From: a virus
Taxonomy: Duplodnaviria > Heunggongvirae > Uroviricota > Caudoviricetes
Virus record (IMG/VR): IMGVR_UViG_2698536476_000014
DNA: 4,971 bases
Reading direction: 5' to 3' (one strand)
The position numbers and the translations under genes are program-made. A model generated the notes under the pieces. That model was not told where the DNA came from. It ran no database searches and was given only the letters and a program-made list of their open reading frames with translations. Positions 401 through 415 of this stretch are shown here, piece after piece (positions within the stretch are counted from its first letter, which is position 1; every line of letters starts with the position of its first letter).

Positions 401-415
401 GCGCTTTGTCAGCGC
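401..415 (-). promoter_or_regulatory. nutL boxB RNA hairpin (5-bp stem, GACAA loop)
   Basis: Minus strand reads GCGCTGACAAAGCGC, a perfect 5-bp stem with a 5-nt loop. It matches the P22-type boxB as I recall it and shares the 13-nt core CGCTGACAAAGCG with the hairpin at 3914-3928. No convincing boxA was found upstream. Confidence 0.6.

Follow-up and report, generated by a model that had tools for sequence, protein, structure and literature searches.

GACAA-loop hairpins as the probable boxB elements of nutL and nutR in an IS-flanked fragment of a 933W-type lambdoid immunity region

The DNA analysed in this study (4,971 nt, referred to below as the window) carries two near-identical hairpins, which we identify, with a probability of about 0.93, as boxB of nutL and boxB of nutR in a lambdoid immunity region of the 933W/H-19B/HK97 type, read by the phage N protein. 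[quoted passage not shown] The original prediction, made from the nucleotide sequence of the window, is supported in all of its parts. It had overlooked the truncation of N, the spacer hairpins, the boxA of nutR and the lack of a canonical boxA in nutL.

The two hairpins and their genomic setting

The minus strand of positions 401-415 reads GCGCTGACAAAGCGC (plus strand, gcgctttgtcagcgc), and the plus strand of positions 3914-3928 reads tcgctgacaaagcga, also written TCGCTGACAAAGCGA. Their proposed near-identity is confirmed by a common 13-nt core, CGCTGACAAAGCG, which matches the window exactly twice (402-414 on the minus strand and 3915-3927 on the plus strand), even when up to two mismatches are permitted; 0.06 matches are expected by chance, and two or more were found in none of 200 shuffled sequences. 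A repeat finder revealed a longer similarity than noted before: the sequence CUACG directly precedes the stem at both sites, which extends the match between 402-420 and 3909-3927 to 19 nt, one of them mismatched. In RNA folding both sites formed a stem of 5 bp capped by the pentaloop GACAA, with energies of -8.5 kcal/mol (nutL) and -6.6 kcal/mol (nutR) and z values of -3.2 and -2.7, respectively, nearly all shuffled sequences being weaker. At each site GACAA is oriented in the sense of its own transcript.

A scan of the window against Rfam (E<=10) revealed no boxB or nut family, and returned only spurious matches to snoRNAs and the His leader. These are located on the ori iterons of the O gene (4691-4810), whose TCCCTCAAAACGAGGGA-type repeats are the source of the sub-threshold snoRNA matches, and on a region resembling the oop terminator. 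The latter is a strong terminator-like hairpin (4259-4286, minus strand; 11-bp stem followed by a T-run) placed inside the 3′ end of cII, a position similar to that at which lambda and P22 have the oop RNA terminator.

Positions 56-4812 are 100% identical to nucleotides 9269-14025 of phage 933W (AF125520), as well as to many Stx1/Stx2-converting phages. In the 933W record, the feature "nutL; putative N-utilization leftward" (9614-9680, minus strand) corresponds to positions 401-467 (minus strand) of the window, and the feature "nutR" (13096-13141, plus strand) to positions 3883-3928 (plus strand). Both annotations, which date from 1999, end exactly at the two hairpins. The gene order is cI, two ORFs, stk, a small ORF, the terminator tM, pL, nutL and N on the minus strand, and pR, cro, nutR, cII and O on the plus strand (Table 1). 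The predicted lambda-like placement of the sites (nutL between pL and N, nutR between cro and cII, both in sense orientation) thus agrees with the 933W annotation, as does the proposed operon layout (pL-nutL-N and pR-cro-nutR-cII), and promoter-like sites are found at the expected places.

Table 1. Position of the predicted features of the window.
Feature	Position	Strand	Description
IS629-type end	1-55		Truncates N; identity to 933W begins at 56
N gene	53-235	-	60 aa in this copy; ARM 12-RSRRRER-18 retained; residues 61-127 lost; stop codon derived from the IS end
nutL boxB	401-415	-	GCGCU-GACAA-AGCGC; 5-bp stem and pentaloop; 3′ end of nutL as annotated in 933W
nutL spacer hairpin	420-435	-	GAUUC-GAAUAU-GAAUC, followed by UACG (416-419); MFE fold
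nutL 5′ part	436-467	-	CGCAUUAC...; hairpin UCACC-AGGGC-GGUGA (445-459), then AUAUACAAC
Early-left transcript start motif	~466-476	-	CAGCAGGACGC; 3′ of pL; conserved in the alignment of the upstream region with lambda, P22, HK97 and H-19B
pL-like promoter	485-513	-	TTGATA-17-CATTAT
tM-like terminator	725-704	-	
pR promoter	3589-3616	+	TTGCAA-16-CATAAT; drives cro-nutR-cII-O; coincides with pR of 933W (12802-12829 of the record)
cro	3648-3875	+	Between pR and nutR
nutR boxA-like sequence	3883-3897	+	CGCUAUUUU, then CACAAU; start of nutR as annotated in 933W
nutR spacer hairpin	3898-3909	+	GGAC-AUUC-GUCC, followed by UACG (3910-3913); fold prediction
nutR boxB	3914-3928	+	UCGCU-GACAA-AGCGA; 3′ end of nutR as annotated in 933W; identical in H-19B
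Second IS629-type end, inverted	4813-4971		Truncates O inside the ori iterons

The promoter regions each contain a 33-bp element with 9-bp inverted arms, located at 499-531 (pL; ACCAATAGT...ACTATTGGT) and 3599-3631 (pR; ACTTTCAGT...ACTGAAAGT). The arm sequences of the two elements differ. The pL region of Salmonella phage SI8 shares the pL element (ACCAATAGTTC...ACTATTGGT).

Upstream of boxB, both sites of the window contain a spacer hairpin ending in the first C of CUACG, directly 5′ of the boxB stem. This two-hairpin form is predicted for all 18 unique related nut sequences that were folded (loci L014-L133). Among the relatives the spacer stem occurs in at least five different versions, including GUCGA/UCGAC, GGUGA/UCACC and GGCC/GGCC; at nutR the variants are GGAC/GUCC, with differing loops, and GGCC/GGCC. 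Since these differing stems preserve the fold, the comparison argues that selection maintains the structure of the spacer hairpin.

The boxA of nutR is close to the consensus CGCTCTT(T)A. The boxA-like sequence CGCUAUUUU corresponds to CGCUCUUUU in HK97, and CGCTATTTT differs from CGCTCTTTT of HK97 by a single change (C to A), both variants being present in IMG/VR. Comparison with related sites did not reveal a recognizable canonical boxA in the nutL of 933W, HK97 or H-19B. The nutL of 933W has AATATACAAC at the position occupied by GCTCTTTAAACAAC in Sakai-type nutL, and in a wider comparison AAUAUACAAC of 933W, HK97 and H-19B stands against GCUCUUUAAACAAC of the Sakai-type sites. The H-19B-type NUT sites have a reduced dependence on NusB and S10.

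Two further hairpins were observed beyond the nut sites. One of them (371-395, minus strand; CCAAAG-UGAA-CUUUGG) is located just 3′ of the nutL boxB and is followed by GGUGUGGUG; among lambdoid nutL regions this region is conserved in several, and it resembles the boxC region of lambda (GGCUUUGGGGUGUGUG). The other (3958-3975, plus strand; UAUGCG-UUUCCA-CGCAUA) is placed between nutR and cII, in the region of the Rho-dependent terminator tR1. It is not followed by a U-tract, and is identical in H-19B, HK97, Sakai and POCJ13.

Conservation among relatives and association of the loop with N

A tblastn search with N retrieved 212 phage records, from which representatives were compared in the regions of N, nutL and nutR. 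HK97 has the same ARM and boxB sequences as the window. The Salmonella phages g341c, S137 and SI8 (N proteins 67-70% identical) contain a GAAA tetraloop within the same flanks; these flanks are also found in VT2-Sakai and POCJ13 (N proteins 35-40% identical), where the loop is GAAA and GCAA, respectively. The boxB stems of the tetraloop relatives carry compensatory changes (CGGCU/AGCCG, AGGCU/AGCCU and UGGCU/AGCCA). Salmonella phage SPN9CC (locus L005) encodes a 933W-like N (86% identity) and has a nutR of the form UCGCU-GACAA-GGCGA; its nutL boxB, GCUC-C-GUCAA-C-GAGC, departs from this in the loop, which is closed by a C.C mismatch similar to that of the P22 nutR.

Covariation was assessed in an alignment (A2) of 19 distinct boxB sequences, with the letter N as a placeholder in the loop. 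Pairing was observed in 98.9% of the cells; the outer two pairs are represented by four and three pair types, and 15 cells contain double changes. The covariation score was reached by none of 500 shuffled alignments, and sliding the register lowered the paired fraction to 18-47%. Conservation of the hairpins in related phages, on which the original prediction depended, was observed in the representatives, in alignment A2 and in the loci from IMG/VR.

These 120 loci were collected from IMG/VR with the pattern CTACGNNGCTGAN{0,1}AAAGC. As CTACG, the inner three pairs of the stem and the loop form GA(N)AA are prescribed by this pattern, the independent tests are confined to the two outer pairs and the association with the ARM. 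All 27 GACAA nutL sites lie upstream of an N gene with an ARM of the KGNSRSRRRERLKAKALANG type, all 37 GAAA nutL sites precede an N gene with an ARM of the G[ST][AS]A[SGT]RRR[AE]RRA..LQ type, and nutL and nutR have the same type of loop in each of the 48 loci holding both, although these counts refer to sequences, many of them from near-identical relatives, and not to independent events.

The full-length N protein of 933W (127 aa) matches the Pfam family N_peptide (PF25694, "Transcriptional antitermination N peptide") with 57.5 bits (cutoff, 27.9 bits), and P22 gp24 matches the same family with 152 bits. Outside the ARM, the likeness of these two proteins is limited to the C-terminal 30 aa, the only region of similarity detected by BLASTP. 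Alignment of the N-termini (window N, FKGNSRSRRRER; P22 N, FAGNAKTRRHER) nevertheless reveals a common ARM core, the first 12 ARM residues being similar (FxGN[SA][RK][ST]RR[RH]ER). As judged from the ungapped alignment, the loop-contacting residues Lys3, His7, Arg11 and Ile15 of P22 would be replaced in the window N by Arg, Arg, Lys and Leu, all four substitutions being conservative, and in N proteins of the GAAA class by Ala, Arg, Ala and Asn/Ser. The P22-like ARM and the match above the PF25694 threshold agree with the suggestion that the GACAA loop fits the N protein encoded here. Searches of PDB sequences with the 933W and P22 N proteins yielded nothing useful, as the shortness of N peptides prevents a match of this kind, and the link to the P22 structure (PDB 1A4T) consequently rests on published papers.

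These observations are consistent with the following mechanism. Transcription leftward from pL and rightward from pR, in the latter case after cro, would yield each boxB as five base pairs topped by the GACAA pentaloop, which may adopt the GNRA-like fold of the P22 type with the C looped out. The N-terminal ARM of N (FKGNSRSRRRERLKAKAL) is predicted to bind this loop, while NusA would bind the adjacent spacer, composed of the small conserved hairpin and UACG. The complex would then remain with RNA polymerase, permitting readthrough of the Rho-dependent terminator tR1 and of terminators located further downstream. The atomic mode of recognition of boxB by N probably resembles that of P22 (PDB 1A4T).

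Alternative readings and the state of this copy

G+C-rich stem-loops in leader and intergenic RNA might also act on the pL and pR transcripts by intrinsic termination or by attenuation. We consider this very improbable, as neither hairpin is followed by a U-tract (the 3′ sequences are AAUAACC and GUCCCAA), both are absent from the results of a terminator scan, and the stem is only 5 bp long; moreover, the loop is conserved and covaries with the class of the N ARM, for which a terminator has no need. Equally little credit can be given to an inverted repeat acting at the level of DNA, for example as an operator bound by a protein or as a site of recombination. A 19-nt inverted repeat is indeed visible on the DNA, but its asymmetric loop is always GACAA in the direction of transcription, compensation occurs within each site and not between the sites (GCGCU/AGCGC versus UCGCU/AGCGA), and the operators of 933W are annotated elsewhere. 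In addition, RNA footprints obtained with H-19B show protection of boxB RNA by N, the nutR RNA spacer and boxB being shielded from RNase H and RNase T1 by N together with NusA/NusG (PMC3526286).

A further reading concerns the present-day state of the sites and not their identity. Positions 1-56 of the window recur in inverted orientation at 4812-4867 (56 nt, 98% complementary), and in related records an IS629/IS3-family transposase is annotated under the matches to these stretches. The inverted IS629-type ends cut N at codon 60 and O at position 4812. The nut sites may therefore be intact but orphaned relics in a decayed, IS-flanked prophage fragment, supporting antitermination only if a co-resident prophage supplies N of the 933W class, and we give this slightly less than an even chance. 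An H-19B N lacking residues 101-127 (delta-CTD, without the C-terminal RNA polymerase-binding domain) still counteracts Rho at nutR/tR1, whereas a distal terminator is no longer overcome (PMC3526286). Since the removal of these 27 C-terminal residues is sufficient for failure far from nut, it is unlikely that the 60-aa fragment could support processive antitermination, although its ARM is retained. On the other hand, the activity of the delta-CTD protein close to nutR/tR1 suggests that the fragment may preserve some local activity. Furthermore, genomes of Shiga-toxin-producing E. coli (STEC) often carry several lambdoid prophages bearing N genes (median of 4 matching places per genome).

With the identification of the hairpins as boxB of nutL and nutR retained, it is probable that this copy is a defective prophage remnant, that it has lost processive antitermination in cis, and that its nut sites are orphaned unless N of the same class is provided in trans. 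The exact IS629/N junction was covered by none of 5,426 complete E. coli genomes.

The control of early expression of Stx phages by N/nut antitermination lies upstream of Q and of Shiga toxin production after induction. We tentatively considered whether the GACAA-class N of 933W, H-19B and HK97 and the GAAA-class N of Sakai and g341c represent two specificities that do not cross-react, toggled by the single looped-out C and by the ARM positions that make contacts in P22. This is doubtful; if true, co-resident Stx prophages would be shielded from each other or capable of mutual rescue, and the N-truncated copy described here would be switchable in trans by N of the 933W class and not by that of the Sakai class. 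The loop/ARM classes (GACAA versus GAAA) could help to predict which prophages cross-activate.

Comparison with known nut sites

The sites described above are already known, being annotated in GenBank and identical to the studied nutR of H-19B and to a boxB of P22, and for this window the result is confined to the re-identification of annotated, experimentally supported sites. Only two points are mildly new: the clean split of natural sites into GACAA loops with one ARM class and GAAA loops with another, and the shortening of N by an IS in the copy examined here. Comparison with the nut sites of 933W, P22 and H-19B showed identity to the 933W annotation, to the P22 nutL boxB and to the H-19B nutR. 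Phage 933W differs from the window in having intact N (127 aa) and O genes. The 933W genome was described by Plunkett 1999.

In H-19B (AF034975), the 138-nt spacer between cro and cII matches positions 3876-4013 of the window at 100% identity over its entire length, boxA, spacer hairpin and boxB included. Its nutL also has the same boxB within the same flanks. The N protein of H-19B is of full length and shares 124 of 127 residues with that of 933W, including an identical ARM, while the immunity genes (cI, operators) differ. Antitermination by H-19B N at nutR has been demonstrated in vivo as well as in vitro (Muteeb et al. 2012, PMC3526286). In that system the ARM "12-RSRRRER-18" recognizes the nut site, and the mutations R15C, R15P and R18P, as well as replacement of the entire ARM by alanine, cause antitermination defects ranging from severe to complete (PMC3526286). 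Given the identity of nutR and of the ARM, the nutR sequence and the ARM of the window are the experimentally validated ones. The classification of the N-like ORF as an antiterminator is likewise upheld by the proven activity of the near-identical H-19B protein on an identical nutR.

Phages of the VT2-Sakai/g341c type have the same arrangement of boxA, spacer hairpin, UACG and boxB within nearly identical flanks, and a homologous N (35-70% identity). They differ in the loop, which is a true GNRA tetraloop (GAAA; GCAA in POCJ13), and always encode an ARM of the other class.

The similarity of the loop to that of P22, as initially proposed, proved to be correct. The annotated nutL of P22 (NC_002371) contains ...CGCTCTTTAACTTCGATGAT-GCGCTGACAAAGCGC, and its boxB, GCGCUGACAAAGCGC, is identical to positions 401-415 (minus strand) of the window at 15 of 15 nucleotides. 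With a G+C-rich stem whose U-A pair closes the GACAA loop, the nutL boxB of the window is thus of the P22 type. The loop is common to both P22 sites and both sites of the window; nutR of P22 (CCGCC-GACAA-CGCGG) differs in its CCGC stem and C.C closing mismatch. The P22 sites also differ in having a canonical boxA (CGCTCTTTA) and in lacking the module composed of the spacer hairpin and UACG. In the NMR structure of the P22 N peptide-boxB complex (PDB 1A4T), the GACAA pentaloop has a GNRA-like fold, in which the looped-out cytosine contacts His7 and Arg11 of the peptide, while Lys3 contacts G6 and A7.

Lambda shares with the window the positions of the elements (pL-nutL-N and pR-cro-nutR-tR1-cII) and a boxB with a 5-bp stem and a GNRA-like pentaloop, recognized by the N ARM. 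Its GCCCU stem carries the loops GAAGA and GAAAA, and a different base is therefore extruded. Both lambda sites also differ from those of the window in having a canonical boxA and a short unstructured spacer.
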